Positions 2,445 through 26,805 of a stretch of DNA of 64,000 nucleotides are shown in pieces; the stretch's first letter is position 1; the number at the start of each line of letters is the position of its first letter. Source of the stretch: Eledone cirrhosa (lineage: Eukaryota). Where the stretch lies: contig OZ024742.1 of NCBI GenBank assembly GCA_964016885.1, forward strand, positions 354,950,001-355,014,000, read 5' to 3'. The notes beneath the pieces are model-generated. The model did no database searches and was not told where the DNA came from. It saw only the letters and a program-made list of their open reading frames with translations. The translations under genes were made by a program, and so were the position numbers.

Positions 2445-2710
2445 GGGTCCTGTGAATGGCCTGACGCTGACTCAAGATTGGAAAAGAAAAACTGGTAGAT
2501 GGCAGTTTGCCCAATCGGACAGGGTCACCGTGGGTTTTATTGGAGAAACCCTTAGAATCTCCTCACCCCTGGAGGAGTCATATTTTTTTTAAATGTATTT
2601 TCTTAGTCTCTATTATGAATTTTATTTTACACAGAGTAAAACCCTCAATGTATCGCCATGCATTTTCTTTAATGTTTCATTAATGTGCTTAATAAACAAA
2701 TCCTTATTAT
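2445..2710 (+). mobile_element. Tx1 array unit 0: 3'-terminal fragment (end of ORF2 plus 3' UTR)
   Basis: GTGAATGGCCTGACGCTGA...GAAAAACTGG...TTGCCC...CAGGGTCACCGTGG aligns by eye to unit 5 at 26488-26580; ends AATAAA...TTATTAT. Confidence 0.6.
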
Positions 2711-2717
2711 AAGAACA

Positions 2718-4061
2718 ATGAGGAAGCTATCACTGAAAGGTCGAGCGGAGGTGGCGAACACGTACATCGCGTCCGTCATCTACTACCGTCTGATCGTTGT
2801 CCCTTGTCCCCGTTCGCGCCTCGTCATCTTGGAGCGGCTCCTCTTCAAATTCTGTGGATGGGTCAGGTTCCCTTGGTGAGGCGGTCCATCTGCTGCCAGC
2901 ACCCTCTACTTGGAGGGCTGGCCATGCCGTGGCTAATGATGCGCAGACACGCGCTGGGGCTGCGGCATATCCAGATATTCTGCCTAAACGGTGAACAGGT
3001 CTGGTCGCCGTTTGTCAGACGGGCCTTTCCGCAGCTCGTCTCTTTGACTGAGCTGCATTCCTGGGTCAAGAAGAAACCGAGACTGGGTGACTGGCATTGG
3101 AATGTTGCCAGACACTCACCTCCCTCTACCAGGTGGGCAATGCGGTCAGTGGAACTTCCACTCTCGATTTCTATAGAGGATTAGTAGTAGGCAAGTGCAA
3201 CGCCGCACACGGAGAGACTCTGGGAGTCGACGAAGTTGAACTAACAAGTCTGATCCGTAGGTCTTTTGAGCCGAGGACGATGGATCATTTCCAAAAATCC
3301 CTCACTTGGCAGTACTACCGGGGGGCACTACTGGTTCGAGATAAACTCTACAGCCACGGAAGTGCTGTCAGACGGTTCTGCCCGAGGTGCGCGCAGAGCG
3401 ACGAAACCGTTCTGCACGCACTCGTCCAGTGTCCGTGCATTACTGACTTGTGGAGTTATGCCGAACAGCTGTTGTCGCGTGTATAACGGATCCAGCTATC
3501 GGATGATTCCATAGTGAAATCGACCCGCCGCCTTCTTTTGGGCAGGAAGGAGAGGAAATCTTCCTCTCTGGTGGCAGTAGCGAAAGAGGTTGTATGGTGC
3601 ACGATGTTGAAATGACTGAAGACAGACTCTTATCTCTTAGGCCAATCCCTCATCAACTTTTTCAAGTTTTACTTAGACAGGAAGGTGAGGGTGGAGAGAG
3701 AAGTACTGCCCCCCCCCCCCAGTACATTTGTTGAAAGGTGGGTGAATGAGGCGAGAATGGGCCGTGTGAGTGGGCCTACTCTGGTCATGCGCCTGTAGGT
3801 GGGTAAATTTGAGGAGAAGAGGGGTGCCCTTCCAGGGTGCTCTCGAAGCGTCGGGGCGTTCAGGATTGGTGGGGTACCTGAGCGAACCCTGGGTGGTCAC
3901 CCTCCTATTGGGCATTTTTCTTGTTGTATTTTATAGTTACTTTGTTATTGTATGTTTACTCGATTCTTCTGTAAAACCACACTGTCGCAGTCTTTTATAT
4001 GTCCCCTATATGTCGGCCCTTGTGGCCAATACATTAAATCATTATTATTATTATTATTATT
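2718..4061 (+). mobile_element. Tx1 array unit 1: 5'-truncated Tx1/L1-clade element with (ATT)n tail
   Basis: Frameshifted ORF2 C-terminal half (RKLSLKGRAEVAN, CPRCAQSDETVLHALVQC), then 3' UTR and ATT repeats at 4041-4061. Confidence 0.9.
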
Positions 4062-4275
4062 GTTGGTGAAGCCACGCTTCTTATCGCCTCCAGTTTTTTA
4101 CAACGTTTTACCTCTTTCAACCGTTCCAAACCTTTTATTCAAGTTTTAAATTTGATAAAAGTTTAGAAGAAATGATCCACCTAATAAAGGGGTTCACTAG
4201 TAAATCATGCGGCACCATTTTACGGGGTGTCGTATTCGTATTTGTGTAAAAATATTTTTTTTGAAAAATGTCAAC

Positions 4276-6300
4276 ATGCATAAAACAAGAGAGAGAGCGC
4301 TGTCAGACAACACAGAGAGAGGGAGACTTTATCAGCATGTCAACAAGACAGCGTTCCAGCGGTGGTAAATATAAACGAAAATATTATAAAGGAAAAAAAG
4401 ATTGTTACAGACTTAAAATTAACAAATATTTCTAACACAAACAACACCGACAATAACACTAACAACAACACCATCAATAACAACAGCAACAACAAAAATA
4501 CCAGCGGTAAAGTCGAGAACGACAATAACAAAAATAACAGCGGTAAGGTCGAGAACGACAATAACATTGACAATAACAACAGCCACAACAACAATAATAG
4601 TAGGAACAGTATCAACAAAAACAACAATAATAACAACAGCCACAATAACAGTAACAACAGCAACAGTATCAACGAAAACAACAACAACAACACCAACAAA
4701 TGTACCAGCGAAAACAACAACAGTGACATCGATACCTGTAATAGCGACCTCAGCACCACCAGTAAGACCAGTAGAGGCAGCAATAGTGGTGCTGCTGAAA
4801 AAGAGACTACTTCTTTTGCAGGTATCGCCCGAAATATCGAGACAGTGTTAGTCACAGAGGAGATGGGTGTTGCAAGGGCCATGGTGACCCGATTTTTTCA
4901 AGGAGCAGCAGCTACGGACGTTGACTTACAGCACCGTAAGCAAAATATCACATCGAGTGGAGAGAGCCACGGAGGCTAAAATCCAAAAGTCTGGGCACGC
5001 AAAACCCACATCACCCGAGGCAGAAAGTACGCCACAGTAGACGTATATTTCGCCACCCCCCAGGAAGCAAAGTCTCACTCTTTGGAAACCCTAAAGAGTG
5101 AGGAGATAGTCTTGGTGCCCTCCTACTGCGGGCAGAAAATTGTGAGGGTCAAAGTGACCCAGGTCCCACCCGACGTGCCCATACCTTGGTTGGCCGCGTC
5201 TGTCCTTGCTTAAATTGAGAACAGGGCGACCATGCTGCAAGTAGAAAAAATACGGAGAGAGAACTGGTTAGGTATAGGCATGCAAATACTTATACAAACT
5301 GAGCAGGAATGTATAGACGCTATACCCGTTATCATAGACATCGAGGAAGGACTCCAGCTCCTTATAAGTGTAGATGGAAGACGGCCAAAATGTTATCTCT
5401 GTGGGTCGAAGGGTCACCTCAGGGCCTTTTGCCCGCAGAAGACACCGAAGAGAGCCCCTCTCCTTCCAATACCTGGTCCGCTGCTACCAAGAGCAGAACA
5501 GGCAACAAACGAAGAAGCCCCTTCCACGGTGAGTAGGACCCGTACCAAGGCCACGGATAACTAAAGCAGCATCATCAGTAGCGGTAACACCAATAGCTAC
5601 ATTTGAAGTAGCTACACCAGCAACAAGATTGCCGAAGAGGGCTCAACTACCACCACCAACAGCCGTGGAGAACATAATCTCTCAGACACCACATAATTCG
5701 ACATGGAGTTTGAGGCGGGAGTGAAGTGGCAAACGGTCTGCCACAAAAAACAAAAAACAAAAAAAACCTTAGATTCACCCTCCAAAAGCGAAGGCATACA
5801 AAGAGGGGTAAAGAGAGCAAGGAAACTTGCAGCAACACCACCACCATCACCACCACAATCACCACCAAAAACACCAACAACGCAAACACAACAAGACACT
5901 CACCAAACGGCAACAAGAAGAAAACACACACAACGCAAACACAACAAGACACACACCAAACAGCAACAAGAAAACAGCAACACAATCACGCCTCCCCACA
6001 AAAAGTACAGTCATAAACATGGCAAAAAAAGAACTCATACAATATATAAAGCAGCACACAGACATCACAGAACAAAACTACTACACCCCACCAATACCAA
6101 TAACTCTCCCGACAAACATAAGCATAATCGAAATCTCAATAGAACAGTACAAACCTTTAAAACAAAAATTCCCCAACGCAGTTGGAGACTTCGGAGGGAC
6201 GGTTACCAAGCGGATATACACTGACATCCCCTTGGAAACACCCATGACCAGCGAAAGGGACGGTTCTACTTTCCCTTCACCATACGAAAATGGTAAGTGA
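4276..6300 (+). pseudogene. Unit 2 ORF1 (gag-like), disrupted
   Basis: Asn-rich N-terminus, CYLCGSKGHLRAFC knuckle, Lys/Pro/Thr-rich linker; stops and frameshifts; start inferred by analogy with other units. Confidence 0.8.
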
Positions 6301-6332
6301 CCCTTTCTCACTTGCCCCGTTTCTCTTCAAAC

Positions 6333-9300
6333 ATGGCTGTACTCAGAATAGGCAGTATAAATGCACGTGGCCTGATGTCATGTTGGAAGCAGGGTCACCT
6401 GCTCAATGAACTCAGGTCTTTAAACATAGATGTGGTAGCCATCAGTGAAACCAGAATCTCCGAAACACGGGCCTTCGCACCGATCTTCGGCCTCTACGAT
6501 GTATACGCATCTCCCAGCCGTCCAGGATCGGGGGAGGGATTTCCGTCCTTTTTTGGAGAGGCTTGGATCTCGCGATACGGGCCATCTTCCTGGACCCAGA
6601 GGGTAAGTCGATGGTGCTGGCGGTGACCGGCACTGGAGGCAATGCTTTCGGGCTAGTAGCCGTCTACATTCCAACGGGGGCAGGACCGCCAGACTTCTTC
6701 ACACGTCTAGAGACCTTTCTTGTAACATCTCGATTTTAGTGTTAGTGGGCGACCGAAACGGTAACTTGGATGCACGCTGGGATCGTGTGGGGCTAGATAA
6801 TAGGGGAGGAGGGTGCAAGAGCCTCACCAACCTGCTCAGACGTTTTGAAATGTCTGACAGGTATGGACTGGATCACCCGAATGTGCCATGTGGACATGGA
6901 CAAACCGTATCGGGTCATCCAGATCGTATCTCGATAGGGTATTATGCAGAGAACTAGATAAGGCTAGTATAAATTGTCCACAATTTCAAATAGTAGACTA
7001 CACAGACCACACATTTGTGATCTGTGATATCGACATAGACAGACTTCATAGACAAGGGCCTGGTTACTGGAAGCTGAACGCGTTTTTCCCGGCGCGCAAA
7101 GCCTACAGAGACCGGATTAGCGTATTAGTTAAGCGGGCGTTGACGGTAGCGGTCGTCAACAACAGGTGGTGGTTCACCCTGATAAGGGCAATTAAAGTAG
7201 AGACGATTAGGTTTAGCAAAGGAGTAGTTATAGAGGAAAAAGAATAGAGGGAGAGCTAGTCAGAAAGCTAGAAGAGGCGTTTAGGACAGGCATCGCAACC
7301 GATGTGTTTGCGGCGAGATTGGCACTCGACCATTACTTCAACGCAAAACAGGAAGGCTGCGTTGTCAGAGCTAGAGCGCGTGCTCTGAAACACGAGGGAA
7401 CAAAAGCCGTCCAATGGGCTGGGGTGGCAGAGGTGCGACGTGGCAACAAAGCCACAATTCGGTCTTTGTCTGACCAAAACGGGTGCGTGATGCTCGAACC
7501 CGACCGATGTGTGAAGCTTTTCAGCAGCACTTTGCTGAAATGTTCGGGAGCGGCGGCGGCCCGGATCAGGGCATGGACTTCAGTGCATACCTCGACGGAC
7601 TGCCTCGGTTCTCGACAACCGCAGCACAGTGTTGCGAAAAGCCAATAACAGCTGGTGAAATACGGTAAGCGATGACTAACTGCACAAGGGGTAAATCGCC
7701 AGGTTTAGATGGTCTGCACTACGAGCTTTATGCATTTATGCCAGACTTGTTCGGTGACCTCTTGCAGACGTCTAATGCAACTGGCAGCAGAACGGGAGCA
7801 TTCCCAGTTTTGTGAGCCGGGGGCAGTGGCGCTGCTGAGAAAAGACCCGAACACGGGGGATGTTATCGATAATTTCAGGCCCATAACCCTGCTAAACGCA
7901 GAGTTCAAGGTGTTAGCAACGAGGTTGGCGCTTGTCGTCAAGCGTCTGGTGGGAGAGGCGCAGACATGCGCCATTCCGGACAGATCTATACACGACAACC
8001 TCCACCTCATGCGATACATATTAGAGAGGGTGGTTAAGGAACCTGGCAAGGGTGGGGCCCTGATCAACTTGGATCAATCCAAAGCATTCGATAGGGGCGA
8101 CCATCGGTACCTGGCGGCTGTTTTCGAGGCAGCCGGTTTCGGCCCCGTTTTCAGGGGTTGGATCGCAGCAATGTACAGCGACATCTGCTCAATTGTGAGG
8201 GTGAACGTTCACCTGTCGCAGCCGTTCAGCATCATGCGCTCAGTCCGCCAGGGTTGTCCCTTCTCGTCGCTTTTGAACGTATTGGCTCTCGAGCCGTTAC
8301 TGCACAAACTGGGGGCGATGAGGGGCGTACCATGCGAACTAGGATGCGGTAAATCCAAGTCGGCTCACGCTGACGACGTCACCGTGGTGGTTCGTGCACC
8401 ATACACGTGCAGATGCTCGGCACCGCTCTCAAGGAATACGAAGCGGTGACAGGAGCAAAGATAAACCAGGAAAAGTTGGTGGGCTTGCAGCTCGGCACCT
8501 GGAGAGGGAAGTCCATGCCGTCCGACAGCGTCGTGGGGCGTTGGATGGACGGACCGGTTAAATTGCTCGGGGTCTGGTTCGGACCGGACCTCAAGATGGA
8601 GAAAAAACTGGAACGAGGTGACGAGCAGGGTGGCCTCCCTCACCCAGAAATGGGCTGAGAGGAAGCTGTCCCTGAAAGACCGGGTGGAAGTGGCAAATGC
8701 GTACATGGCATCCGTCATCTGCTACCGCCTCACCGTCGTCCCTTGCTCCAGCCCAACTCTCACCAAAATGGAGCGCCTCTTCTTCCGCTTTTTGTGGAAG
8801 GTTGGTGCTCCCATGGTCAGACGATCCATCTGCTGTCAACACCCGTTGCGTGGGCATGCCATTGCTGATGATGCGCAAACATGCGCTGCGGCTGCGACAT
8901 CTCTGGTGCTTCCTTGATGTTGAACGGGTGTGGTCACCGTTCGCCAGGCACGTTTTCCCACAGCTCGTCTCCTTGACGGAGCTGCAGTCCTGGGTCCGAA
9001 AAAGACCGAGGGATAGCGCTCAGTTCGGCACCAATATCGGTGGAACATCCACCTTGGCGTTCTATAGAGGACTAGTGGAGGGGAAGCGCGACGACATTCT
9101 CGGAGAGATCCTGGGCGTCGAGAAGATCAGCTGTTTGCTCTCTTCCGGAGAACTTTCAGCCCGGGGCCTATGGATAACTTCCCAAAATTCCTGGCCTGGC
9201 AGTGCTACCGGGGAGCGCTGCCGGTTCGAGATAAACTCTACAGGCACGGAAGTGCCGTCAGCCGAGCCTGTCCGAGATGCGCGCAGAGCGACGAAACCGT

Positions 9301-9684
9301 TGTGCACGCACTCGTTCAGTACCCGAGCATTGCTGACTTGTGGAGCTATGTCGAACAGTTGCTGTCACGTGTGGGACTGATCCGGTTGTCGACTGAGTCC
9401 ATTGTGCAGATGGTCTCGCCGTCTTCCTTTAAGGAGGAAGGGCAGGCGGTTTTCATCTACCTGGTGGCCATGGCAAAAGAGATTGTGTGGTGGACAAGGT
9501 TAAAAGGGTTAAGACAAACACTTTCCTCTTCGGCGAATCCATAATTAACTTTTTCAAGTTTCACTTGAAGAGGAAAATCAGGGTGGAAAGGCAAGTGCTG
9601 CTTTCTAGCAAGTTTGTTGAAAGGTGGGTGAATGTAGCGAGAATGGTCCGAGTGAACGGGACCACTCTGAATATACGTCTGTAG
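6333..9684 (+). pseudogene. Unit 2 ORF2 (AP endonuclease, reverse transcriptase, CCHC), frameshifted
   Basis: MAVLRIGSINARGL, AISET, VGDRN, YTDH; NFRPITLLN, LDQSKAFD, RQGCP, HADD; CPRCAQSDETVVH. Confidence 0.92.
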
Positions 9685-9990
9685 TTTGAGAGATGGGAAA
9701 ATTGAGAGAGGGCGCTTGCCCTGGTGGTTAGGGTGGCCGTGGTCTACTGTGTGGTTTTCGCCACGAGTAAACCTCGGAGGTTTCCCCCTATTGGGGAATT
9801 TTTCATTGTTTCAATTTTCATTTTTAATGTTTATATATATATATGTTTTATGTCCTTTTTTTCTTTTCTTATAAAAATAATAAAAATATTTACACGCACA
9901 AAACCCACATCGTACCGTCCTGTGCCGTCTGTAATGTTTTTGTTGATGTCAGCCCTTGTGGCCAATAAAGAAATAATAATTATTATTATT

Positions 9991-12900
9991 GTTCTTTGAT
10001 TCTCAGTCATTGATGTTATTTAACAGGAAAGTTTGTTGAAATGAATATCAAGCCACTACCTGCAGCGTCAGATATTCAGGACGTATTGGAGGGTTCTTGC
10101 TGTTCCCAGCAAGCATGCCTTTTGAATCGTTCCAAAAAACGTGGCGGGGCCAATTTTCTTTGACCATCCCTGGAAACCTTTTGAGATAGTACCTAGTGCG
10201 CCTATGACAATCGGGACCACTTTGACTTCATGGCAGTTCCAAATCCTTTTTACCTCCCACATTAAATCCTGGTATCGGTTAATTTTCTCCCTCTCCTTCT
10301 CTTGCACTCTCGTTTCGAATGGGCAGGCCACATCCACAATCAGGCACGATATTTTGTCCTTGTCCAAAACCACCAGGTCAGGTCTATTGTATTCCAGTTT
10401 CTTGTCCGTCTGTATCCTAAAATCCCATAGCACCTTCACCTGATCGTTTTCTATCACCGACTCTGGCTTATGCTCATACCACTTCTCAGAATGTGGTAAA
10501 TTGTTTACTTTGAATAGGTGCCAGTGGATCACCCTGCACATCACATCATGTCTCCAGCCCTTATAGTGAGTCTGGTCTAGGTGTTTACTCTCGGATACAA
10601 TGTGAGCCACAGTCTCCTCTCTCTCTCCACAGATCCTGCACAGTGGGCTAGCCTCCTCCTTGTAAATATGGGTTTTCAACCATTTCGTTTTGAGGGCCTG
10701 CTCTTGCGCAGCCATTTGCATTCCTTCTGTAGCCTTTTTAACGTCTCCTCTTTTCAACCAGTTCCATGTCTGTGGATCTCTGAATTCATTTTTCTCAAAG
10801 AAGGTACTATGAAGGGATTTTTCATGAAGGCTGCTCTTTCTCCTTGTTATTTCCTCCTTGGACAACCCCTGGTCTATTGTCCTGTCCTTCAGTACAATTC
10901 TGAGCATTGGCTCCTTACTATCAGTCACGTATTTGTGTAGGTTATTTTTCTCCATCCGAACAAAGTCCTCTATGCTGATAAGACCACTTTCACCTTCAGA
11001 TCTCCTTAAGTAGAGTCTATCGACATCACTCCTCTTGTGGAACATGTTGTAGATAGTCAATAGCTTCCTGGTCTTCCTATCCATTTCTTTTTGTTCATCA
11101 ACATTCCATCTCAGCATTCCCGCACTGTACCTAATAATAGACACAGCTAGGGAATTTACTGCACTTATGGCATTCCTACTGTTCAGATGTGACTTTAATA
11201 CGCTCCTTACTCTCCGAATGTATTCATATCTTATCAAATACTTCATTTGTTTGTTCTTGATGTCATCAGCCTCCAGAACACCCAAATACTTGTATCCTTC
11301 TCCAGTGTCAATTTCCTTTATCATCTCACCTGTTGGTACGTGGATTCTGTTGCTTCTGCTCAATTTACCCCTCTTCATCACAAGGACTCCACACTTACTA
11401 ATACCAAATTGTATACATATATCATTGCTGAAAATACGGACAGTGTCAACAAGCACATCCAACACCTTCTCACTCTTCCCGAAGAGCTTAAGATCGTCCA
11501 TGAAGGGGAGGTCATTGATGGTAAGCCCTCCCTTTCCCAACTTGTATCCTGCTCTCACTTTTCGCAGTATAATGGTCAGGGGCATCAGGGCAAGGACAAA
11601 CAACAGAGGGGACAGACTATCTCCATGGAAGATACCTCTCTTGGTCGTCACGCCTCCCAAGGATACTCCAGCTGATGTTAACTCTGCTTTCCAGGACTTC
11701 ATACTTTTGCCCAATATCTTTTGATGTTATCTGCCACCTTGAAGATCTCTAGGCTTTTGGTGATCCAAGAATGAGGCACCATGTCAAATGCCTTTTTATA
11801 GTCTATCCATCCCATGGCAAGACCAGTGTGTCTCCTCTTGCAATTACTCATTACCATCTTATCAATAAGTAACTGGCCCGGTACTTCTTTCGGCATCCTT
11901 TTTGTTCGTCCGATAACAAGTTGTTTGTGTGCAGGTGATGGTAGATTTCCTCAGACATAATGTTTGTCAACAGTTTCTACATTACAGACAAACGTGATAG
12001 GTCTATAATTGGAAACATCATTACCCTTGATTCGGTCTTTCATTACCAGAACTGTGGTATCTTTTCTCAACCACTCTGGTACCTGACATCAAGCAGTCAT
12101 TGAACATGGTTGTCAGTTTCGGGTGGAGGGATGTTATATTTTTAATCCAATACACCTGCACACCATCTGGGCCTGGTGATTTCCAGTTGGTTAGTATTTT
12201 GGCCTGCCCCTTAAGAGTTTCAACTGTGATACTCAAATCAGTCTGTTGGTGTGCCTGTTCACTAATCTCCTTTTGTACTATTTCAATCCACACTTCCTGG
12301 TCATTATGTTTAACATCCTACTCCCATATTACTCTCCAGAATGTCTTAGTTTGCTCCGCCTCAGGGATCAAGTCGTTGCCTCTTTCTTTCCCTTCAAGCT
12401 GTCCAAACAGCATCTTCTGGTTGTTGTGAAACATGCGGTTCTGTCTATACTGATTGACTCTACTCTCGTATCGCCTAATTTTTGCACTCTTTGCTACAAT
12501 GCGTTGCTTCAGTTCCTCTATGATAATACTTAGCTTTTTCCTACTAGTTTTGTACTTTATTTCCAGTCTATTTTTAGTGTCTATGTGTTTTAGTGTCTCA
12601 GTAGGGACTCAAGCTTTCCAATATCATTTCTCATTTCCCTGATTTTACCATTCAGTCGTTTCTTCCACCAAGGTTCTGATCTTTCTTGTTTGTTGTTTCC
12701 TCTCGCTTGTATGCCAAGTAAGTTCCTCACCGCATTTGCTGTTGCTTTGAGGATATTGTTGCACTGGTGAAGGCTCTTCGCCTCAAGGTATGGGATGACT
12801 TTGTTTACCTTAGCTGTTGTTTCTTTTAACTTTTTACTGTCTACAAATCTTATGTTCACAGGTTTCCCACTATCATTGTTCAATTCATCTACCACTAAGT

Positions 12901-13669
12901 TTAGGATATCAACCAAATCTTGTCCTAGCCCGTCAGCATTCATCTCCTCAATGGCCGTATCTCTGTTCCAGGTATTATTTATTTCTGCATTCAGATCATT
13001 GTCTGCTTCGGATGGTTCCTCCGTTCTCTCAACCTCTTCACCTTCATTTCCCACTGGCTCGTTTGCCTGGCATACTCTACTCTCCATTTCGAACCTAATC
13101 TCTCTGCCCAGTTCCTCCAGTTCCAGCTAGCTTATCCACCCATCAGTTCTTTTTATCCGAGCCTGCCCGGCCAATTTTTGTTCATCTAATTTTACTAGAC
13201 CAATCTCGTTCCAGATGTTATGCATCCGTTTCCTATAGCCTTTCTCCTTGGGGATGCTCTTCAGATAACATTGCATAACAGTTCTATTCAATTCTTTCGT
13301 CCAGTTGGTTCTGGTCCCTTTCCTTCTTCTTCCTCCGACACCAGCAGTACTTGGTTGACAGCCAGGTCCCTGCTGCTGAGACATGGAGCACCTGCTGGGT
13401 GAGAGTTTGTCACATGACATTCCAGTCTCCACTTCACCGTTATTCGAACTTTTTAGGTTCGGCATTTAAACACTCTTATCGAGGATTGGTGAATGTATGG
13501 TTACATAACCACCGGCGATTTCATCACCCCCCGTGATTTTAGTGTGGCACTATCACGCTGTAGACGAACATAAATAAACAAGCAAACAAACAGGTAAAAA
13601 CAAAACGCCAATTGTAATGTAATGTTTGAATGTCTGACTTAGTTCTTCCCCCTTCCTTCTTTGTCTGTC
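9991..13669 (-). mobile_element. R4-clade (Dong-like) non-LTR retrotransposon with restriction-like endonuclease, ~3.7 kb, inserted in (TAA)n
   Basis: Single frameshifted ORF with RT and RLE; TTA/TAA repeats on both sides (9978-9990 and 13670-13692). Confidence 0.85.
10068..13465 (-). pseudogene. R4/Dong-like ORF (RT plus CCHC/PD-D RLE), several frameshifts
   Basis: NWKSPGPDG, WIDYKKAFD, GIFHGDSLSP, FMDD, YKYLG, CRICGEREETVAH, RHD, RPDLVV, IVDVACP, PIVIGALG. Confidence 0.92.
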
Positions 13670-13897
13670 TTATTATTATTATTATTATTATTGGTCTAAG
13701 CGGACGTATTTTGCTCGCTCACAGTAAGTCGCTTTATTTGCCTGTTTAAATTATTTTTTGTTAAATATTTCTTGTTGTGTAAGGGATATAAGCCCTTAGA
13801 CTTTGCCCCGTGAAGGGGAAAGTATAATATTTGGGCCTTTTGGCCAAAATATTTGAACTTTTTTTACATGTTAAAAAATTTACGAAGAAAAAAAAAC

Positions 13898-15790: not shown

Positions 15791-15824
15791 TAAACCTTCC
15801 TCTCTGTCTGTTAAACCTGCCAAC

Positions 15825-18800
15825 GTGGCCGTATTAGGAGTAGGATGTTTAAATGTTCGAGGCCTGGGATCGTCCTGGAAGCAGGGTCACCTGCTCAATG
15901 ACCTCAGGTCTATATAAATTGAAGGAATTGCAGTCAGCAAGACCAGGATTTCAGAAACGCGCGCCCTAGCCCCCATTTTAGACGACTATCAGATCGTTGA
16001 ATCTGTTAGCCAGCCGGGAATGGAAGGCGGGGTGGCAGTGCTGTTTAGGAAAGTCTGGATCTCGAGGTAAGGTGGATCTTTCGGGAGCCGGACGGGAAGT
16101 TGGTGGTCCTAGACGTGAACAATAATGATGGTGGTGCCTTTAGACTGGTGGCCGTCTATGCTCCTACTGGGTCAGGACGGCCAGATATCTTTAGACGCCT
16201 GGAAGCCTTTCTGGGCACGTCTCGCCCTTTAATGTTAGCGGGGGACTGAAACGGCATCTTAGACGCACGCTGGGACTCTGTGGGAGTATCCGATAGGAGC
16301 GGGGGGTGCAAAAGCCTCAAGAACCTGATCAGCCAGTTCCAACTGTCTGACAGGGACCGACTAGATTTCCCTAATGCGCCAGTGTGGACTTGGGCTAACC
16401 GCATAGGGTCATCTAGATCGTATATGGACAGGATATTCATTAGGAAAATAGACAGAAATAGTGTAAGTTGTTCACGTTTTGAAACGGTCGCCTTTTCAGC
16501 TTACAAGTTTGTGATCTGTATGGTCGACATAGATTAGACCCGTAGGTTAGGACTTGGTTACTGGAAGCTAAACATGTCATTTCCGGCACGTAAGGCTTAC
16601 AGGGACCAGGTCAACAATTTAGTTAAGAAAAAGTTGACAGGGGAGTCGTCAACAATATATGGTGGGGGGCTCTCAAAAGAGAGATTAAAGTAATGTCGAT
16701 AGAGTTTAGCAAATAAGTAGCATTAGAGAAAACTAGAAAGGAGGGAGAGTTGGTAGATAAGTTAGACGAGGCTACTGGTAGTGGCATTGCAACTGATGTG
16801 CTAGCCGCGAGAATGGCATTAGACCATTTCTTCAATGCGAAACACGAAGGTTGCATTGTCAGAGATAAGGCGCGTGCTCTGAGAAACGAGGGAAGGAAAG
16901 CTGTCCAATGGGCCAGCGTGGCAGAGGCGCAGCGTGGTAATGAAACCACGATTCGGTCTTTCACGGACCGAGACGGGCTCGAGCTGAGCGATTCCAAGAG
17001 TATGCGTGAGGCCTTTCGCCAACATTTTGCTCGGTTGTTCGGGAAAAGTGGTGGGTTAGAGATGGTGGCGGACTTCAGTCCCTACCTTGATGGCTTGAAC
17101 ACAACTCTCGACGGCTGACGCTGGGCGCTGCAAAAGGCCAATTACTTAAGCCGAGATTCAGGATGCCCTTGTAGGCTGCATGAGGCGCAAGTCACCCTGT
17201 TTGGATGGTCTGCCCTACGAGCTTTACGTAAATATGCCAGACTTGTTCTCCAATCTCCTCGAAGCCCTCACTGCAACTGGCAGCAAAACGGGAGTATTCC
17301 GAGTTCTGTGAGGCGGGGCGTAGTGACGCTTATAAGGAAAGACGAGAACAAGAGGGACACATTAGACTATTTCAGGCCCATAACTCTGCTCAACACAGAG
17401 TTTAAGATTTTGGCCAGGGTGTTAGCGAAGAGGTTGGCGCTTGTCGTCGGGGATTTGGTTGGGGAGGCGCAAACTTTCGCAATCACAACCATGTCCATAC
17501 ACGACAACCTCCACCTAATGCGATACATTATAGAGAGGGTAGGGTGTAAACCTGGCTTCGGTGGGGCTCTGATCAATTTAGATCAATCGAAAGCATTCGA
17601 TAGGGTCGATCATCGGTACCTGGAGGCTGTCCTCAAGGCGTCTGGCTTCGGCCCCGTCTTCAGAAGCTGGATCGCTGCAATGCACAGCGGCACCTGCTCG
17701 ATGGTCAAAATTAATGGCCACCTCTGGGAACCGTTTCAGGTATCCCGATCGGTCCGTCAAGGGTGCCCGCTCTCCTCCCTTCTGTACGTATTGACTCTCG
17801 AGCCTTTACAGCGGAGGCTGGAGCTGTTGCAGGGCATCCCGCTCGAACCGGGACGCGGAAAGGCTGTGTCGTCTTATGCGGACGACATCACCGTGATGGT
17901 GTCGGACATCTCAGAAATCGAGGTGGTCCGCAACTTATTGGAGGAATATGAAAGGTTGACGGGAGCAAAACTTAACCCGGAAAAGTCAGTGGGCTTGCAA
18001 CTCAGCACCTGGAGAGCCAAGTCCATGCCGTCCAACAGCGTCGTTAGGCGTTGGACGGACGGACTGGTAACGTTGCTAGGAGTTTGGTTCGGTTCGGACC
18101 TCCAGGTGCATAATAATTGGGACGAGGTGACGGGCAGGGTAGTCTGTCAAACCCAGAAAATGGCTGGGATGAAGCTATCACAGAAAGGTCGGGCGGAGGT
18201 GGCGAACACGTACATCGCGTCTGTCACATACTACCGTCTGACTGTCGTACCTTGCCCCCGTTTCCGCCTCGCCATTTGGAGCGGCTCCTCTTCAAATTCT
18301 TGTGGAGGGGTTAGGTTCCGCTGGTGAGGAGGTCCATCTGCTACCAGCACCCTCTACGTGGAGGGCTGGGCATGACGTGGCTAATGATGGGAAGGCACGC
18401 GCTGAGGCTGCGGCATCTCCAGATATTCTGCCTAAACGGTGAACAGGTGTGCTTGCCGTTTGTCAGACGGGCGTTTCCGCAGCTCCTTTCTTTGACTGAG
18501 TTGCAGTCCTGGGTCAAGAAGAGACCGTGACTGGGTGACTGGCATCTGGAATGTTGCCAGACACTCACTTCCCTCTACCAGTCGGGCAATGCGGTCAGTG
18601 GAACTTCCACTCTCGAGTTCTACTGAGGATTATGGTGGGCAAGTGCGACGACGCACTCGGAGAGGCTCTGGGAGTCAACGAAATCGAACTAACCAGTCTG
18701 TACCGGAGGACTTTCGAGCCGGGGACGATGGATAATTTCAAAAAATCCCTCGCTTGGCAGTGCTACCGGAGATAAATTCTACAGGCACGGAAGTGCTGTG

Positions 18801-19223
18801 AGACGGACCTGCCCAAGATGCGTGCAGACCGACGAAACTGTTCTGCACGCACTCGTCCAGTGTCCGTGCATTACTGACTTGTGGAGTTATGTTGAACAGC
18901 TGTTGTCTCGTGTAGAACGGATCCGGCTATCGGCCGAGTCCATAGTGAAGATCGACCCGCCGCCTTCTTTTGGCAAGGAAGGGCAGGTAATTTTCCTCTG
19001 TCTGGTGGCAGTGGCGAAAGAGGTTGTTGTGGACGAGGTTGAAAGGACTGAAGACAGACACTTTTCTCTTCAGCCAATCCCTCATCAACTCTTTCAAGTT
19101 TCACTTGGAAAGGAAGGTGAGGGTGGAGAGAGAAGTGCTGCCCCCAGTACATTTGCTGAAAGGTGGGTGAATGTGACGAGCATGGCCCGTTTGGGTGGGC
19201 CTACTCTGGTCATGCGGCTGTAG
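15825..19223 (+). pseudogene. Unit 3 ORF2 (APE-RT), frameshifted
   Basis: LNVRGL, FRPITLLN, LDQSKAFDRVDH, RQGCPLS, YADD, CPRC...H...C. Confidence 0.92.
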
Positions 19224-19496
19224 GTAGGTAAATTTGAAGAGGAGAGGGGTGCCCTTCCAGGGTCCTCTCGAAGCGTCGGGTCGTTCAGGATTGGTGGGGT
19301 ACCTGAGCGAATCGTAGGTGGTCATCCCCCCTTTTGGGGAATGTTTTCCTGTTGTAATTTTCTTGTTAATTTATTGTTACTTTGTTATTGTTACTTTGTT
19401 TATTCATATTGTTTACTCGATTTTTCTGTAAAACCCCACTGTCCCAGTCTTTTGTATTGTCCCCTATATATCGGCCCTTGTGGCCAATAAATGAAA

Positions 19497-19534
<38 letters not shown>

Positions 19535-19744
19535 GGCGACCTACGTAGTAAATCGTATCATCGGGAGCTCCGCAAAGGTTTGTTATTTCCGTTTGCTAAA
19601 CATTGCCATTTATCGAAAATGTTTATTGTTAAATGTATATAAGCGCACACACGATGTTTTCCGAAAAGGACACCCAAAAAGATTCGGGCCTTGTGCCAAA
19701 AATTTAAACTTTTATGATTATCAAAAAATTTCTTTGAAAAAACC

Positions 19745-21640
19745 ATGGCTGATTCACCTCTGCACCAATCAGATGAGAGCCTTCCTCACAAACTAACACC
19801 TCACACCGACACCACCATTGTAAATATTACTACGTTTGCCAACACTAAAAATTTAAGCAGTAGCAATATATTAAATTTGTCTCAGGCAGACATTCATTTC
19901 CCTCCATTACCAATGACTGCAGGTGTTAAAGCCGCCGCGACAACCACCTCTTCCATCAGCACCGCGACAACAGAAACAAAAGGGAAAAATAAATTAACTC
20001 GTGATGTCGAAATGAATTCAACCAAAATGAACTCTTCCACACCGAACACCACTGACGCCACCACCACCACAACTGAACTAAAATTAATAATAACAAAAAT
20101 AACTATAACAACCACAGCAACAATGACATTAAGAAAACCAACCTGAGTTTTGCCAGATTTGCAAAACAGTGCGAAGCATTTCAGGTAACTCAGGAGGAAT
20201 TAGATATGCCAAAAAAATGGTAAAGAAAGATGGGTACAGCGTCAGCCCCCCCTCCCCCCCCCTAATAAAATGGACCATCGGCGCCTATGCACCGTGTCTT
20301 ATCGAACAATTAATGTAAAATTACGCCGAGTGAACGGGTATCCGAGTCCCAAATCAAAAGACCTTTGGGACATGTGTAGGCAAGAAAAACCCATATCAGA
20401 CGATGGGCAGAATTTTGGAACCGTGGACGTGTTCTTTGAAACACCAGAGGAGGCTAGAGAACACTCCATGGCTCCATTAAGAAGTGACGACTTCACACTC
20501 GTCCCAAGCTGTTGTGGTCAGAGACTCGTAAACTTCAGGGTGACCCACGCCCCACCGGCCATCGAGATTCCCTGGCTAATAGCTGCCGTCGTCGCCGGCA
20601 TCGAAGCCAACACCAATATAATAGCAATAGCGAAATAAAAACAGGAGAACTGGTCCGGATCTGGAATGGAGCTCCTGATCCAAGCGGACCAAAAAAGCAT
20701 TGAGGAGATGCCAGATGTAATAAACTTCACTGACGGTAGCCACCTCACCGTAATTGTCGAGGGCAGAAGATCTATGTGTGTCGTTTGTGGTGAAGGAAAC
20801 CACCTAAGAGCTTTCTGCCCTCAGGCTAAAATGTTGAGGCGACCTCTCCTACCCACCCCAGTGACCAACCATCAAAACCACCAGCAGCAGAGATGGCAGC
20901 AACAACTGTAGCAGCAACAACAGAAGCAACTATAACAGCAACAACCCCAGCAACAGTAGCAACACCAACACCACCACAACCCAACACTTCTGAATTAGCA
21001 CCAGCGCCTACACCATCCACCACGACACAACCAAAACTAACGCGAGTGGAAGATTTTCCAATACCCGGCCTATCACAACTGGAGACAGATTGTGACGATG
21101 AGGAGTGGGAAACGGTATCAGGAAAAAAGAAAAAAAGAAACTAAAAAAGAAAAAAATTATCTTCCTTCCCCCTCCAAAAACAAAATACAGAGGGAAACAA
21201 ATCACCAACCCCATCACCCCAAACACCAACACCATCACCATCATTAACCCCAACACCACCATCACCTACACCACAAAAGTCACCAAAATGCGAAAGACAA
21301 ACAAACCCACAACAAACGCAAACAAAACAAAACAACCAAAACGATACACACTACACAGCATTAAATTTGAACAACAACCAATTATTACACTACATCCAAC
21401 ACAACACCAGCATCACAGAAAAAAGACTACACAACAACCCCAAAATTCACACCACCTCCACACATACAAATCACTCGCATCACACAGAAAGCGTACATGA
21501 CACTAAAACAAACATTGCCCAAAGATATCGAAGACTTCCGACAAGCACTCTCCAGGAGAATTTATAAGGACATCCTTCCTGTGGAGGCCACAAGCAGTGA
21601 AAAGGATGTAGAAACCGTCCTTCCTCTACGAGAAATAAGG
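19745..21640 (+). pseudogene. Unit 4 ORF1, disrupted
   Basis: AACCATGGCT start, Thr-rich N-terminus, zinc knuckle, central region similar to unit 2 ORF1. Confidence 0.78.
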
Positions 21641-21677
21641 TAAGTGGTCATTCCCATCTTTTCCACTCCATTTCAAC

Positions 21678-24600
21678 ATGACCTCACCGAGAATAGGCAG
21701 CATAAATGCGCGTGGCTTGGGGTCGTCATGGAAGCACGGCCACCTGCTCAACGACCTCAGGTCACTAAACATAGATGTAGTGGCCATCAGCGAGACAAAT
21801 CTCCGAAGCACGGGCCTTCGCACCGTTCTTCGGCAGCTACGATGTGTACGCATCTCCCAGCCGTCCTGGATCGGGGGGAGGAGTTGCTGTGCTTTTTCGG
21901 AGAGGTTTGGATGTTGCCATACGGGCCATCTTCCTGGACCCAGAAGGTAAGTTGGTGGAGCTGGACCTGACCAGCGGAGACGGGCAAGCTTTCAGGTTAG
22001 TGGCAGTCTATGCCCCGACTGGAGCAGGGCGGTCTGATTTCTCCGGCGTCTGGAGACCTTTCTTGGAACGTCCCGCACTTTAGTGTAAGTGGGCAACTGG
22101 AACGGGATCTTAGATGCACGCTGGGACTGTGTGGGATGAGTGGATAGGGGAGGAGGGTGCAAGAGTCTCACCAACTTGCTCAGGCGTTTTGAACTGTATG
22201 ACAGGTACCGATTGGATTTCCCGAATGTGACATAGGGTCGTCCAGATCATATCTAGATAGAGTATTTTGTAGGGAAATAGATAGGTCTAGCTCAGGCTGT
22301 CCACAATTCAAGATAGTCAGTTACACGGACCACAAATTCGTGATTTGTGTGCTTCACTTAGATAGGCTTCATAGACGAGGACCCGGCTACTGGAAGCTAA
22401 ACGCGTCCTTACAAGCGCGCAAGGCCTACAGAGACCGGATTAGCGAACTGGTTAAGCGAGCGTTGACGGGGGCCATCGTCAACGACAAGTAGTGGTTTAC
22501 TCTGAAAAGAGCAATTAGAATAGAGTCCATTAGGTTTAGTAAGGCTTTAGCAATAGAGAAAAATTGAGCAGAGAGAAAATTAGTTAGAAAATTAGACGAT
22601 GCGCTTAGCAAAGGCATCGCGACCGACGTACTTGCGGCGAAATTGGCCCTTGACCAATTCTTCAATGCAAAGCACGAAGGCTGCGTTGTCAGAGCTAGGG
22701 TGCGTGCTCTCAGACACGAGGGAACGAAAGCCGTTCAATGGGCCCGAATGGCGGAGGCGCGTCGTGGCAACAAAGCCATGATCCGCTCTTTGGTGGACCA
22801 CGACGGGCGCATGCTACTCGATCCCGGGCAAATGTTTGAAGCTTTTCAGCGACATTTCGCACAGCTGTTCGGGGGCAGCGGCGGGCCGGATCAAGGGATG
22901 GACTTTAGTGTCTACCTCGACGGACTGCCGCGGCTCTCGGCCACTGAGGCGGAGTGTTGCGAAAAGCCGATAACAGCCGCTGAAGTACGGGAGGCAATGA
23001 CTGGCTGCACAAGGGGTAAATCACCTCGTTTGCATGGTCTGCCCTATGAACTTTACGTACAGATGCCAGGCTTGTTCGGAATCCTCTTGGCGGGTGTCAA
23101 CTGCAACTGGCAACAGAACGGGAGAATTCGCAGCTCTGTGAGCCGAGGATCTGTGGCGCTGCTGAGAAAGGATCCGAACAAGGGGGATAATATAGATAAT
23201 TTCAGGCCCATAACTCTGCTAAATACAGAGTACAAGATTTTGGCTAAGGTGCTGTTCGTTGGTGGTCTGGTGGGAGAGGCGCAGACATGCGCCATTCCCT
23301 ACAGATCCATCCACGACAACCTTAACCTCATGCGATACATCGTAGAGAGGGTAGCCAGGGAATGGCACTGATGTGTCCTTGATCAATTTAGATCAGTCAA
23401 AAGCTTTCGATATATCGACCATCGTTACCTAGCGGCAGTCTTGAGGGCGGCTGTCTTTGGGCCCGTCTCAGAGCTGGATCGCTGCTATGCACAGCGACAT
23501 CTGCTCTGTGGTGAGAGTGAACGGTCACCTTTCGTAACCGTTCAATATCATGCGCTCGGTCCGCCAAGGATGTCCCCTCTCGTTCCTCTTGTACGTATTG
23601 ACTCTCGAGCCATTACTGCACAAACTGGAGACGTTGAGGGGCGTCCCGCGCGAACTAGGATGCGGAAGATCCGTGTCAGCATATGCGGACGATGTCACCT
23701 TAGTGGTGTCGAACGCCAAACACATCGAGGCGATCGGCACTACACTAAGAGAATACGAAGCGGTGACAGGAGCAATGATCAACCAGGAAAAGTCAGTGGG
23801 CCTGCAGCTCGGCACCTGGAGAGGAAGGTCCATGCCGTCCAACAGCGTCGTCGGGCGCTGGACAGACGGACCGGTTAAATTGCTAGGGGTCTGGTTCGGT
23901 CCGAACCTCCAGATGGACAAAAACTGGGACGAGGTGACGAGCAGGGTGGCTTCTCTCACCCAGAAATGGGCGGAGAGGAAGCTATCCCTGAAAGGTCGAG
24001 CGGAGGTGGATAACGCGTACATCGCGTCCGTCATCTACTACCGCCTGACCGTCGTACCTCGTCATAAGCCCCGCCTGACTGCGCAGGAGCGTTTTCTCTT
24101 TCGCTTTTTGTGGAAGGGACGCGCCCCAATGGTCAGGCGGTCCATCTGCTGTCAATACCCGCTACGTGGAGGGCTGGGCATGCGGTGGCTGATGATGCGC
24201 AGACACGCGCCCAGGCTACGACATCTCCACCTCTTCCTCGAGGGTGATCAGGTGTGGTCGCCGTTTGCTAGACACGTCTTTCCGCAGCTCGTCTCCTTGA
24301 CGGAGCTGCAGTCCTGGGTCAAGCAAAGACCGAGGGGGAGCGCTTGGAGACTGGAATGTCTTCAGGCGCTCACAGCCCTCGACCAATCGGGAAATATGTT
24401 CGGTGGAAACTCCACCTTGGCGTTCTATAGGGGATTAGTGGAGGGGAAGAGCGACGACGTACTTGGAGAAACTCTAGGCCTCGACGAAAATAAACTAGCC
24501 AATCTCTTCGGATGGACTATCGGGCAGGGGCCTATCGACAACTTCCAGAAATCCCTGGCCTGGCAGTGCTACCGGGGAGCTTTGCCAGTTCGAGATAAAC

Positions 24601-25030
24601 TCTACAGGCATGGAGGTGCCGTCAGCCGAGCATGTCCGAGATACGCGCAGGGCGACGAAACCGTCCTGCACGCACTCGTCCAGTGTCCTAGCATTGCTGA
24701 CTTGTGGGTTTATGTCGAACACCTGCTGTCACGTGTAGGACGGATCCGGCTATCAGCTGAGTCCATCGTGAGGATTGCCCCGCCCTCTTCCTTTAGCCGG
24801 GAAATACAGTTAGTTTTTATCTTTCTGGTGGCCATGGCGAAAGAGATAGTATGGTGGACACGTTTGAAAGGGCTGAAGACGAGCACTTACCTCTTCGGTG
24901 ATACCCTGATTAACTTTTTCCAATTTCATCTGAAAAGGAAAATCAGAGTAGAGAGGGAAGTGCTCTCTTCCCAGCATGTTGTTGAAAGATGGGTGAGAGA
25001 AGCAAGTATGGCCCGAGTATGTATCTGTAA
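21678..25030 (+). pseudogene. Unit 4 ORF2 (APE-RT), frameshifted
   Basis: MTSPRIGSINARGL, NFRPITLLN, RQGCPLS, YADD; 514-aa open stretch from 23550. Confidence 0.92.
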
Positions 25031-25273
25031 ATTAAAGGTGGAAAACTGGGAGAGGTCACTTGCCCTGGTGGTCAGGGTCACTGTGGTCTTTTAATGGGCT
25101 TTCTCCACAAATGTCCCTCGGAAGTCTCCCTCCTATTGTGGAATCTTTCTTTGTTATTTTATTACATCCTCTGTTTTTTTTACACGCAGAAACGCCCATT
25201 TGTTCCGTCCTGTATTGTCCTGTACTGTCCTTAATGTCTACTTTATGTAAACCCTTGTGGTTAATAAAGAAAA

Positions 25274-25304
<31 letters not shown>

Positions 25305-26805
25305 GAATGCTATGGTTGACGGAGGCTCGGCTCTGTAAGGTACTGTAAATTTTGAACGCTTTAACAATTGTAAATTGTTTAAAACTTAGACCAACTTGTA
25401 GACAAAACCACCCTCCTCCTCGTGAGAGGGGTCTTTCTGCCCGTTATTTGGCCCTTCGGGGTTAAATAACTGTTTATTGGGGGTTTGTACCCAATATTTA
25501 TTTTAAACAAAAAAAAACAACATGGCTACGAAAAAGAATTTGCATAGGTCACTCCCAATCATTCCGTCTTCTTCTTCCTCAATCGCCACTACAGCAGAGA
25601 GAAGATTGTCTCTCTCCCTCCCTTCTTTAAATGTGTCTCTCTCCCACCCTTCTCTTTCGCAAGTGACGAAAGAAAAGAAAAGTCTCGTGCAAAGCATGTA
25701 AGGTTTCTCCACGACGACAACGACAGCGACGAAACAGGTGTGCGGAAAATACGAAAACCCAGTTCATTCGTCTGACGTCAGGAATAATAGCAGTAGCAGC
25801 CGTAATAAAAACAGCAACAGTGACAATGAAAACAACAGTAGCAGCCGCAACATCATCACCAGCAGCATAAACAACAACAGCATTAGCAGCAGCAACACCA
25901 ACAACAACCACAGCAACAGCGGCGAAGGCAGTAGTCGTAGTACCTGCAGCAACAACAAAAATAAACTAGCCAATCTCTTCGGATGGACTATCGGGCCGGG
26001 GCCTATGGACAACTTCCAGAAATCCCTGGCCTGGCAGTGCTACCGGGGAGCTTTGCCAGTTCGAGATAAACTCTACAGGCATGGAGGTGCCGTCAGCCGA
26101 GCATGTCCGAGATACGCGCAGGGCGACGAAACCGTCCTGCACGCACTCGTCCAGTGTCCTAGCATTGCTGACTTGTCGGTTTATGTCGAACACCTACTGT
26201 CGCGTTTAGGACGGATCCGGCTATCATCTGAGTCCATCGTGAGGATTGCCCCGCCCTCCTCCTTTAGCCGGGAAGGGCAGGCAGTTTTTATCTGTCTGGT
26301 GGCCATGGCGAAAGAGATAGTATGGTGGACACGTTTGAAAGGGCTGAAGACGAGCACTTACATCTTCGGTGATGCCCTGATTGATTTTTTCAAATTTCAT
26401 TTGAAAAGGAAAATCAGAGTAGAGAGGGAAGTGCTCTCTTCCCAGCATTTTGTTGAAAGATGGGTGAGAGAAGCAAGAATGGCCCGAGTGAATGGGCCTA
26501 CTCTGAGTATATATCTGTAAATTAAAGGTGGAAAACTGGGAGAGGGCACTTGCCTTTGTGGTCAGGGTCATTGTGGCTTTTTACTGGGCTTTCTCCACAA
26601 ATGTCCCTCCGAAGTCTCCACCCTATTGGGGAATTTTTCATTGTTATTTTTGTTACATCCTCTGTTTTTGTTTTTTACACGCAGATATGCCCATTTGTAC
26701 CGTCCTGCATTGTCCTGCACTGTCCTTAATGTCTACTTTATGTAAACCCTTGTGGTTAATAAAGAAATCATTATTATTATTATTATTAGTAGTATTATTA
26801 TTATT
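25305..26805 (+). mobile_element. Tx1 array unit 5: chimeric or internally deleted element (5' UTR and ORF1 start fused to an ORF2 3' end of the unit-4 subfamily)
   Basis: CAACATGGCT start at 25522 and Asn/Ser repeats, joined at ~25958 to sequence nearly identical to 24487-25290. Confidence 0.85.

Follow-up and report, generated by a model that had tools for sequence, protein, structure and literature searches.

Retrotransposons of the APE-RT type, likely belonging to the Tx1 clade, seem to insert in the genome of the octopod Eledone cirrhosa in one fixed orientation at the motif ATTATT. The nick is likely made by the ORF2 endonuclease, and with the motif on both sides of every insertion further elements could stack beside earlier ones. 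We assign this reading a probability of about 65%.

The window, a stretch of 64,000 nucleotides (contig OZ024742.1, positions 354,950,001 to 355,014,000), contains six Tx1-type pieces (U0-U5) on the plus strand between 2445 and 26805, as the original prediction had stated. Table 1 gives an overview of the features. The pieces had been described as a chain with no host DNA between them, but this chain is interrupted: a Dong/R4-like element on the minus strand splits it between U2 and U3. Thus, the TTA run before U3 adjoins this element rather than the tail of a Tx1 unit. All four 5′ junctions given in the prediction, with their ATT runs, were present where indicated. Only the start of U2 most likely has to be moved from 4065 to 4062 (GTT GGTGAAG), because most copies have GTT, GGTT or GTTGTT in front of GGTGAAG. 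An (ATT)n end had been claimed for every unit; ATT runs follow U1 to U5 (that of U2 reaching 9990), but U0 ends in TTATTAT only. For U0 the Tx1 sequence covers 2445-2704 with an uncertain 5′ boundary. Its best relatives are 74–78% alike over most of the query and mostly end in AATAAAGAAATC, followed by a short or decayed ATT run.

Table 1 Features of the window
Feature	Position	Strand	Remarks
Further SINE copies	about 1889-2105, 26872-27020, 27278-27472		
U0, old Tx1-subfamily 3′ stub	2445-2710	+	ORF2 end, 3′ UTR, AATAAA, TTATTAT
U1, 5′-truncated Tx1 copy	2718-4061	+	U3-like, 85.5%; ATT x7 at 4041-4061
U2, full-length decayed Tx1	4062-9990 (start most likely)	+	ORF1 CCHC knuckle near 5391; ORF2 remnants 6342-9681
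Dong/R4-like element (presumed)	9990-13669	-	RT, presumed cysteine-histidine motif, PD..D restriction-like endonuclease; 3.7 kb
(TTA)7.7 run	13670-13692	+	between Dong 5′ end and U3 head
U3, full-length decayed Tx1	13693-19534	+	knuckle near 14888; ORF2 remnants 15834-19220; ATT x12 at 19499-19534
U4, full-length decayed Tx1	19535-25304	+	knuckle near 20777; ORF2 remnants 21684-25019; ATT x10 at 25275-25304
U5, young-family copy with 4.5-kb internal deletion	25305-26805	+	ATT run 26770-26805
SINE copy	27037-27230	-	family inserts at ^ATTATT, Tx1-like 3′ end
Solo 5′-truncated U3-family copy	59034-61834	-	5′ flank decayed ATT-like run; 3′ flank ATT, then (AGT)n

Only three units of the array (U2, U3, U4) are full-length; the deletion junction of U5 lies at 25955-25963 with a 9-nt overlap. 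The ORF2 regions of U2, U3 and U4 are 71–78% alike, while their 5′ UTR and ORF1 regions are mutually unalignable except for one 66-nt patch (U3/U4). U4 and U5 are 92% alike in ORF2 and the 3′ end but differ in 5′ UTR and ORF1. Closer relatives of each unit exist elsewhere in the genome (93–99% at 5′ ends), so that the units represent independent insertions of different subfamilies, as had been proposed. Tandem duplication as origin of the window array was rejected, since the joined subfamilies differ.

Protein P0001 matched Exo_endo_phos, RVT_1 and zf-RVT, all above cut-off and in one frame, and its best solved relative is the L1 ORF2p. Catalytic-type APE, RT and zinc-finger domains are found within one ORF of 1138 codons. 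ORF1 of the Tx1 clade carries a CX2CX4HX4C knuckle; such knuckles were found in U2, U3, U4 and in the intact U5 ORF1. The sole Tx1-named relative was a protein of Stylophora (32% identical), none of the relatives returned bore the name Kibi or Koshi, and the quick tree did not include Tx1L, Keno, Kibi and Koshi. The elements are APE-RT retrotransposons, likely of the Tx1 clade.

Targeting of ATT in fixed orientation, as predicted from the array, was borne out genome-wide when the 5′ flanks were tabulated as had been proposed: TTA repeats were enriched at 120 intact 5′ ends (heads) of four subfamilies, 4 of them from the window and 7 from one array. Upstream of 118 of the 120, two or more perfect ATT units lie in the same phase and orientation; three or more units are present upstream of 112. 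Across 600 kb of genome, sampled at even spacing, (ATT)3 starts at 2.7e-4 of positions; the presence of ATT at the heads is therefore not due to chance. Furthermore, an ATT run precedes all 47 full-length copies among the 59 traced via 3′-end matches. A random sample (60 evenly spaced 10-kb stretches) yielded 4 heads of these four subfamilies, again all after an ATT run; AAC/GTT runs are 2.5 times commoner than ATT runs in these stretches (125 vs 50). The copies studied are the best-scoring matches and hence the youngest. Old fragments in the random stretches often have no ATT flanks. ATTATT was present within 30 nt upstream in only 25 of 44 copies broken at the 5′ end, a mixed, non-random set including deletions and later insertions, and loci L161 and L179 have no ATTATT upstream. 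Metagenome contigs contained 80 loci with relatives (about 25–42% identical), of which 15 were inspected and had no ATT flank pattern. We rejected the assumption that (ATT)n simply belongs to the 5′ end of the element itself, because upstream contexts and run lengths vary freely and truncated copies as well as SINEs show the ATTATT on the target side.

On the 3′ side, all 60 ends examined (3′-end matches of U2 and U1 are left out of this count) are followed by an ATT run, and C precedes the first ATT in 57 of them. AATAAA or a variant is located 6–7 nt upstream of the junction in 57 of 58 parsed copies, and poly(A) was nearby in one of the 58. The tails had been regarded as new at each insertion; the 3′ ends do enter ATT runs, but these represent, at least partly, duplicated target. 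Indeed, two truncated Tx1 copies have clean duplications of 15–16 nt starting with ATTATT, ATTATTGCCTTTCAT(C) and ATTATTGCAGCAAATG, and no added tail. No duplication with non-repeat bases was detected in full-length copies. Nested insertions were tested for newly made tails, and in none of 8 cases was a second copy of the duplication unambiguous; locus L249 matched but is open to a reading as an ATC variant in front of another head. The 5′ runs are longer than the 3′ runs (median 28.5 vs 18 nt, p=3.5e-5), and 9 of 46 full-length copies have less than 10 nt of pure ATT on the 3′ side. Neither the longer 5′ runs nor the absence of non-repeat duplications can be accounted for by a simple nick-and-duplicate model.

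An abundant SINE family uses the same site and forms duplications of 8–19 nt starting with ATTATT. Among 44 random copies, 24 duplications were informative, and positions +1 to +6 read ATTATT in 20–23 of these. C was found at −1 in 11 of 24 (vs 14.6%, p=2.5e-4), the base that also precedes the first ATT at Tx1 3′ ends. Two SINEs sit precisely on the 3′ terminus of a Tx1 copy, and 4 of 24 on the terminus of another SINE. The SINE 3′ end shows a significant likeness to U2, U3 and U1 (0, 15 and 36 of 2000 shuffles); for U4, U5a and U0 (108, 277 and 431 of 2000) significance was not reached. This SINE is likely moved in trans by these Tx1 elements. In crocodilians, SINEU shares its target with Tx1-Mar and was likely moved by Tx1 (PMC4494074); both SINEs share a Tx1 target, which here is a short ATTATT motif and not a Mariner transposon.

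Read in its own sense, the minus-strand element has (AAT)n/(TAA)n on its flanks. Its RVT_1 match is weak and its best solved relatives are R2 proteins; the translation contains an RT, then a putative cysteine-histidine motif and a restriction-like endonuclease. The element is a putative Dong. A Dong-like element lies upstream of at least 22 of the 120 Tx1 heads, and the Dong 3′ end is unrelated to that of Tx1 (595 of 2000 shuffles). In silkworm, mosquito and the snail Biomphalaria, a specificity for TAA has been described for Dong (R4 clade) (PMC3812793). The microsatellite is common to Dong and Tx1, but Dong has a restriction-like endonuclease and the opposite orientation; apparently, the repeat has become the target of two endonuclease types that are unrelated to each other. 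The original prediction had not noted the Dong element, the SINE at the shared site and an ATCT-specific sister subfamily.

In this sister subfamily, designated V, a TATC run precedes 19 of 20 5′ ends, with at least two perfect units at 17 of 20 (background of (TATC)2, 7.5e-5). Target preference is common in the Tx1 clade; the threshold for it was set at more than 20% of flanks (PMC4494074), compared to 118/120 in the ATT subfamilies and 19/20 in V. In quick trees, which include V as one copy, V is sister to U3 (SH-aLRT 98), and monophyly of the ATT subfamilies was rejected (p-AU 0.0056, AU test run after the tree had been seen). As V nests among the ATT subfamilies, these trees would imply at least one switch between ATT and ATCT within the clade. 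The anatomy of V is that of the ATT subfamilies, with tail repeat and target repeat changed together. Compared to U5, its APE is 62% and its RT 75% identical, and the endonuclease hairpin loop of V differs (ANRSG vs T/ANRIG).

Head-to-tail arrays recur in the genome. Contig C4 has 13 units, ten of them near-identical with open ORF2, and ATT runs occur at the unit junctions of arrays on C4, C1 and C7; one C4 junction enters a Dong stub directly. A Tx1 tail lies upstream of 37 of 110 heads, compared to 4 of 48 background ATT runs (p=7e-4), a small background; against a satellite-free background the excess is 37/110 vs 4/37 (p=0.01). Self-seeding, as originally proposed, is therefore supported with regard to the re-use of landing sites. 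Nevertheless, the mechanism is not unique, since tandems are already known from the literature to arise where a target preference meets target duplication, and some of the array growth is segmental duplication. The interstitial position was confirmed: the window is located at 354.95 Mb of a 378.9-Mb contig, about 24 Mb from its end, and the C4 array at 222 Mb of 378.8 Mb. A telomeric role was rejected, as the array positions are not terminal. The proposed feedback resembles that of HeT-A/TART only superficially, because all target-preferring elements with target-site duplication regenerate their target (10.1101/158386).

A possible course of events is as follows. The putative ORF2 endonuclease would nick the bottom strand opposite C^ATTATT and thereby start target-primed reverse transcription. 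The RNA, with its poly(A) signal 6–7 nt before the junction, may carry a few AUU units from read-through at its end; pairing of these units with the nicked strand would account for the missing poly(A). The full-length cDNA would then join inside the repeat, hence the fixed ATT|G phase. Each insertion would leave the motif on both sides for later elements, and the terminal C of the element seems to restore C^ATTATT as the favoured site. Slippage may lengthen the runs and unequal exchange may amplify some arrays, while Dong, on the opposite strand, and the SINE would use the same runs.

Alternatively, target choice could reside in the RNA. Transcripts would start and end in the flanking repeat, a loosely AT-specific nick would be accepted wherever the AUU or AUCU end pairs, and full-length copies would gain a copy of the repeat leader at their 5′ junction, so that a target switch needs no protein change. 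The copies without poly(A), the signal 6–7 nt before the repeat, and the pure, in-phase 5′ runs that exceed the 3′ runs agree with this, as do five loci (L204, L207, L209, L210, L253) with 21–51 nt of pure ATT upstream, 5–8 nt downstream and no diagnostic duplication. Furthermore, tail and target repeat changed jointly in V, and RNA-target pairing contributes in other LINEs (PMC6007223). However, the C preferred at −1 of SINE sites falls outside the part able to pair, the V endonuclease is just 62% identical to that of U5 with a different hairpin loop, and the Tx1L endonuclease was reported to be sequence-specific in vitro (PMC1950540). We consider RNA-borne choice rather unlikely, and similarly doubtful that octopod Tx1 elements inherit their target through flanking repeat at both transcript ends, a stray insertion having made the ATCT lineage without retuning of the endonuclease.

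The preferred reading, insertion at ATTATT by the element's own endonuclease, also has to be weighed against another origin of the arrays: they may have grown mainly from a few double insertions, through duplication (tandem or segmental) and gene conversion, with a real target preference but little feedback. On C4 the ten adjacent units differ by 4–78 substitutions in 6 kb (two by just 4), and a block of Dong stub and Tx1 stub is present twice. Yet different subfamilies are joined in the window, in the C7 arrays and in other C4 arrays, a Tx1 head, often of another subfamily, follows 18 of 60 dispersed 3′ ends, and collapsing the C4 copies to one leaves the neighbour excess in place, which makes duplication as the main route improbable. 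Least probable, and largely refuted, is wide insertion followed by survival or assembly only in tolerant ATT-rich regions. Old fragments and about 40% of the 5′-broken copies without ATT flanks would fit, but regional survival cannot account for a phase and orientation that are exact to the base in 118 of 120 heads (including copies 98–99% alike), nor for the different exact repeat used by V.

Kibi, Koshi and the crocodilian (TTCC)n/(TTTC)n Tx1 families are described as microsatellite-specific, related families using related repeats (PMC4494074, PMC3812793). The elements studied here resemble Kibi/Koshi as Tx1-type APE-RT elements specific for a microsatellite. In contrast to the known targets (TC)n, (TTC)n, (TTCC)n and (TTTC)n, the junction repeat is ATT or ATCT, and a mollusc-type genome, long head-to-tail arrays and 600–1500 first-look candidates for each of several subfamilies are further differences. 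No ATT- or ATCT-specific Tx1 is described in the literature searched, a search outside which lie Repbase, Dfam and the target labels of Fig. 3 and supplements of PMC4494074; microsatellite-specific Tx1 are already known, and the ATT and ATCT targets appear new relative to this literature. R1 arrays, in which target preference plus duplication keeps the site and makes a new one and dimers expand by unequal exchange (10.1101/158386), likewise have the target motif duplicated at unit junctions; unlike R1 tandems, about a third of the young full-length copies here have an upstream Tx1 neighbour and subfamilies mix. Head-to-tail non-LTR arrays of mixed families are also known from the telomeric HeT-A/TART/TAHRE and from Tx1-1_ACar (PMC10088271). 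Unlike HeT-A/TART, the arrays here are interstitial, have target repeats between units, bear an endonuclease and give no sign of end-capping.

The findings bear on how APE retrotransposons gain or change target specificity, by protein, RNA pairing or both. The clade includes very young copies with open reading frames as well as close subfamilies on different repeats; U5 and V would form a natural pair for testing target choice and its change, and the SINE reports cut sites at base resolution; this may inform tools for site-specific gene insertion. LINE arrays of multiple 10 kb in cephalopod genomes could be explained in this way. Three element types (Tx1, Dong, SINE) are linked to the ATT/ATCT microsatellites, a point of importance for assembly, the annotation of repeats and the use of microsatellite markers.

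A search of window positions 1-30000 against Rfam gave no match. Among the contigs listed in 4 sequencing runs none bridged the tandem junction, so that reads gave no confirmation of the array, and no RNA run was among those listed as holding U5 words. At least half of the U5 words were found in 11 rows of the sequencing runs listed, representing 8 coded organisms and 7 studies.

The flanks of the elements were tabulated across the genome with the first 200–230 bases of four heads (element 5′ ends), without flanks, as queries, keeping the 30 best loci per head. Among these 120 heads, which include four copies from the window and seven from one array, perfect ATT units end exactly at the head in 118 (at least two units) and 112 (at least three units) cases. 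As background, sixty 10-kb stretches at even spacing gave a frequency of three-unit ATT runs of 2.7e-4 per position and strand; AAC/GTT runs are commoner in them than ATT runs (125 vs. 50), and the four heads encountered there by chance are all preceded by ATT. In two 3′-end searches an ATT run directly follows the element at all 60 loci, with C as the last element base at 57 of them. A poly(A) signal lies 6–7 nt before the junction in 57 of the 58 parsed 3′ ends and poly(A) was seen in one. Of 60 longer stretches, 59 were traceable; an ATT run precedes each of the 47 full-length copies among them, with a terminal change in three cases. ATT targeting by these Tx1-type elements, as stated in the original prediction, is thus strongly supported. 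Further heads resembling Tx1 stand directly after ATT tails in four other stretches (L315, L138, L180, L432), suggesting that ATT subfamilies outnumber the four sampled. A repeat beginning ACAGTTGCATTTATC also follows ATT runs directly with a fixed junction (L267, L274, L283, L313, L134, L258) and is possibly another element with the same target. Stretch L311 carries 11 copies of a 556-bp satellite with an ATT x4 run inside its unit.

The cut site was approached through an abundant SINE, the 3′ end of which resembles that of Tx1 (counts out of 2000 shuffles: 0 for U2, 15 for U3 and 36 for U1), while the likeness to U4, U5a, U0 and Dong was not significant in the shuffle test. Exact duplications were present in 27 of 44 SINE copies from the 60 evenly spaced 10-kb stretches. 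The 24 informative ones are 8–19 nt long and start with ATTATT (each of positions +1 to +6 in 20–23 copies), and C occupies −1 in 11/24 compared to a background of 14.6% (p=2.5e-4). According to this start and the favoured C, the minimal site is likely C^ATTAT(T), which a Tx1 insertion would restore through its own terminal C. Four SINE copies are inserted at the end of another SINE, and at other loci two lie exactly at a Tx1 3′ terminus.

The expectation that each insertion adds a new (ATT)n tail found no clear support. Two 5′-broken copies show clean duplications of 15–16 nt whose ATTATT start lies directly at the element end without added tail; L170 would allow a reading with six added units, although the bases that decide this are also part of a Dong end; and none of eight tests gave a clear second duplication copy behind a nested element. 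In a mixed, non-random set of 44 copies with broken 5′ end, ATTATT occurs close upstream in 25. Full-length copies differ from these: non-repeat bases at the 5′ junction were seen in none of them, and in 46 such copies ATT runs have a greater median length on the 5′ side (28.5 nt) than on the 3′ side (18 nt; p=3.5e-5). Nick-and-duplicate alone does not account for this asymmetry, which is the chief argument for a possible RNA contribution to target choice. True 5′ truncation is rare (5′ end kept in 47 of 59 traced copies) and large internal deletions are frequent (L122, L125, L147, L151, L158, L162, L169, L180).

The window array, at 354.95 Mb of contig C3 in the 3.0-Gb assembly, is real with corrections. 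Six Tx1-type pieces lie on one strand as originally described, but a Dong/R4-like element on the opposite strand had been overlooked.

Features of the window and two loci elsewhere in the assembly
Feature	Position	Strand	Description
Direct duplication	380-889 and 991-1500		~510 bp, 93%
U0	from 2445	+	old 3′ stub
U1	window array	+	5′-truncated Tx1-type copy
U2, U3, U4	window array	+	full-length Tx1-type copies, decayed
Dong/R4-like element	9990-13669, between U2 and U3	-	3.7 kb, TAA-type flanks
U5	to 26805	+	young copy, 4.5-kb internal deletion
(TTC)44 run	33889-34020		perfect, Koshi-type target; no Tx1 match beside it in window self-comparison
Direct duplication	52756-53853		~580 bp, 99%; 326-bp inverted copy adjoins
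V	L200:4283-10000 (C4, 263.45 Mb)	-	very young Tx1 subfamily at (ATCT)n
U5 unit	L184:3423-9447		part of C4 array

The divergence described originally was confirmed: the 5′ parts of U2, U3 and U4 are essentially without alignment, the ORF2 regions are 71–78% alike, and each of the three has 93–99% relatives elsewhere in the genome. U4 and U5 share ORF2 (92%) but not ORF1 and 5′ UTR. Together with two chimeras of U4-type ORF1 and U5-type ORF2 (L251, L255), this points to swapping of 5′ UTR and ORF1 among subfamilies. The oldest pieces are the upstream ones (best relatives 78% for U0, 90% for U1, 96% for U2), and this order fits growth on the tail side.

After removal of window copies and collapse of the C4 array, a Tx1 tail lies upstream of 37 of 110 heads, and of the 48 ATT runs that served as background 4 have one (p=7e-4; 4/37 and p=0.01 with one satellite left out), in a comparison with a small background and heads biased to young copies. 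Self-seeding above the expected rate is therefore supported, by a mechanism already known: target preference together with target duplication giving tandems is a published principle (10.1101/158386). Duplication also adds to array growth, since a stub block occurs repeatedly on C4. Further head-to-tail arrays are found on C1, C7 and C4, the largest with 13 heads over >73 kb (C4, 222.06–222.14 Mb, L183–L190). Ten of its units are near-identical (4–78 substitutions apart), all with open ORF2 and eight with an ORF1 of ~700 codons; an active source locus or a small-RNA locus is possible. At least half of the sampled words of its U5 unit in L184 are present in sequencing runs of eight organisms with different codes. 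This suggests that the element was recently active in several species or was passed from one to another.

The elements are assigned to Tx1 by domain layout, ORF1 knuckle and one named relative, an assignment that is probable; the closest named protein to the RT region, from Argonauta hians, is 73% identical, which makes an octopod host likely. Tx1 families with a microsatellite as target have been described for TC, TTC, TTCC and TTTC (PMC4494074), whereas the targets here are ATT and ATCT; the telomeric repeat is another known Tx1 target (PMC10088271), and that of Dong is TAA (PMC3812793). In a recent Octopus vulgaris annotation L1-Tx1 and Dong-R4 are listed among active families, and its main text does not use the word 'target' (PMC13282606). 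The literature searched contained no ATT- or ATCT-specific Tx1; Repbase, Dfam and the figure labels and supplements of PMC4494074 lay outside it, and prior annotation is possible. These elements are a variation on microsatellite-specific Tx1 elements already known.

Of greatest value is the finding of sister ATT and ATCT subfamilies with young, intact copies. V shares 75% (RT) and 62% (APE) identity with U5; first-look candidates numbered 523 for its 3′ end and 1249 for its 5′ end. Its terminal motif is that of the ATT subfamilies, but the repeat after it is ATATC(TATC)n at almost all of the 20 ends. A TATC run precedes 19 of 20 heads (at least two perfect units in 17), the twentieth being truncated, and about six heads are, by eye, preceded by a Tx1-type tail. 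Several other 3′ ends with ATCT tails lie upstream of V heads. A quick RT tree placed V as sister to ATT subfamily U3 (SH-aLRT 98), and a clade of ATT subfamilies alone was rejected (p-AU 0.0056) in a test run after tree inspection with V as one copy; this would imply a target switch within the clade. In the segment aligned with the L1 hairpin loop, the ATT subfamilies have T/ANRIG, the Tx1-type ORF2 protein P0001 TNRLG and V ANRSG. This loop influences L1 nicking specificity, though single changes did not (PMC1950540), and the difference between V and the ATT subfamilies may be a lead to target choice.
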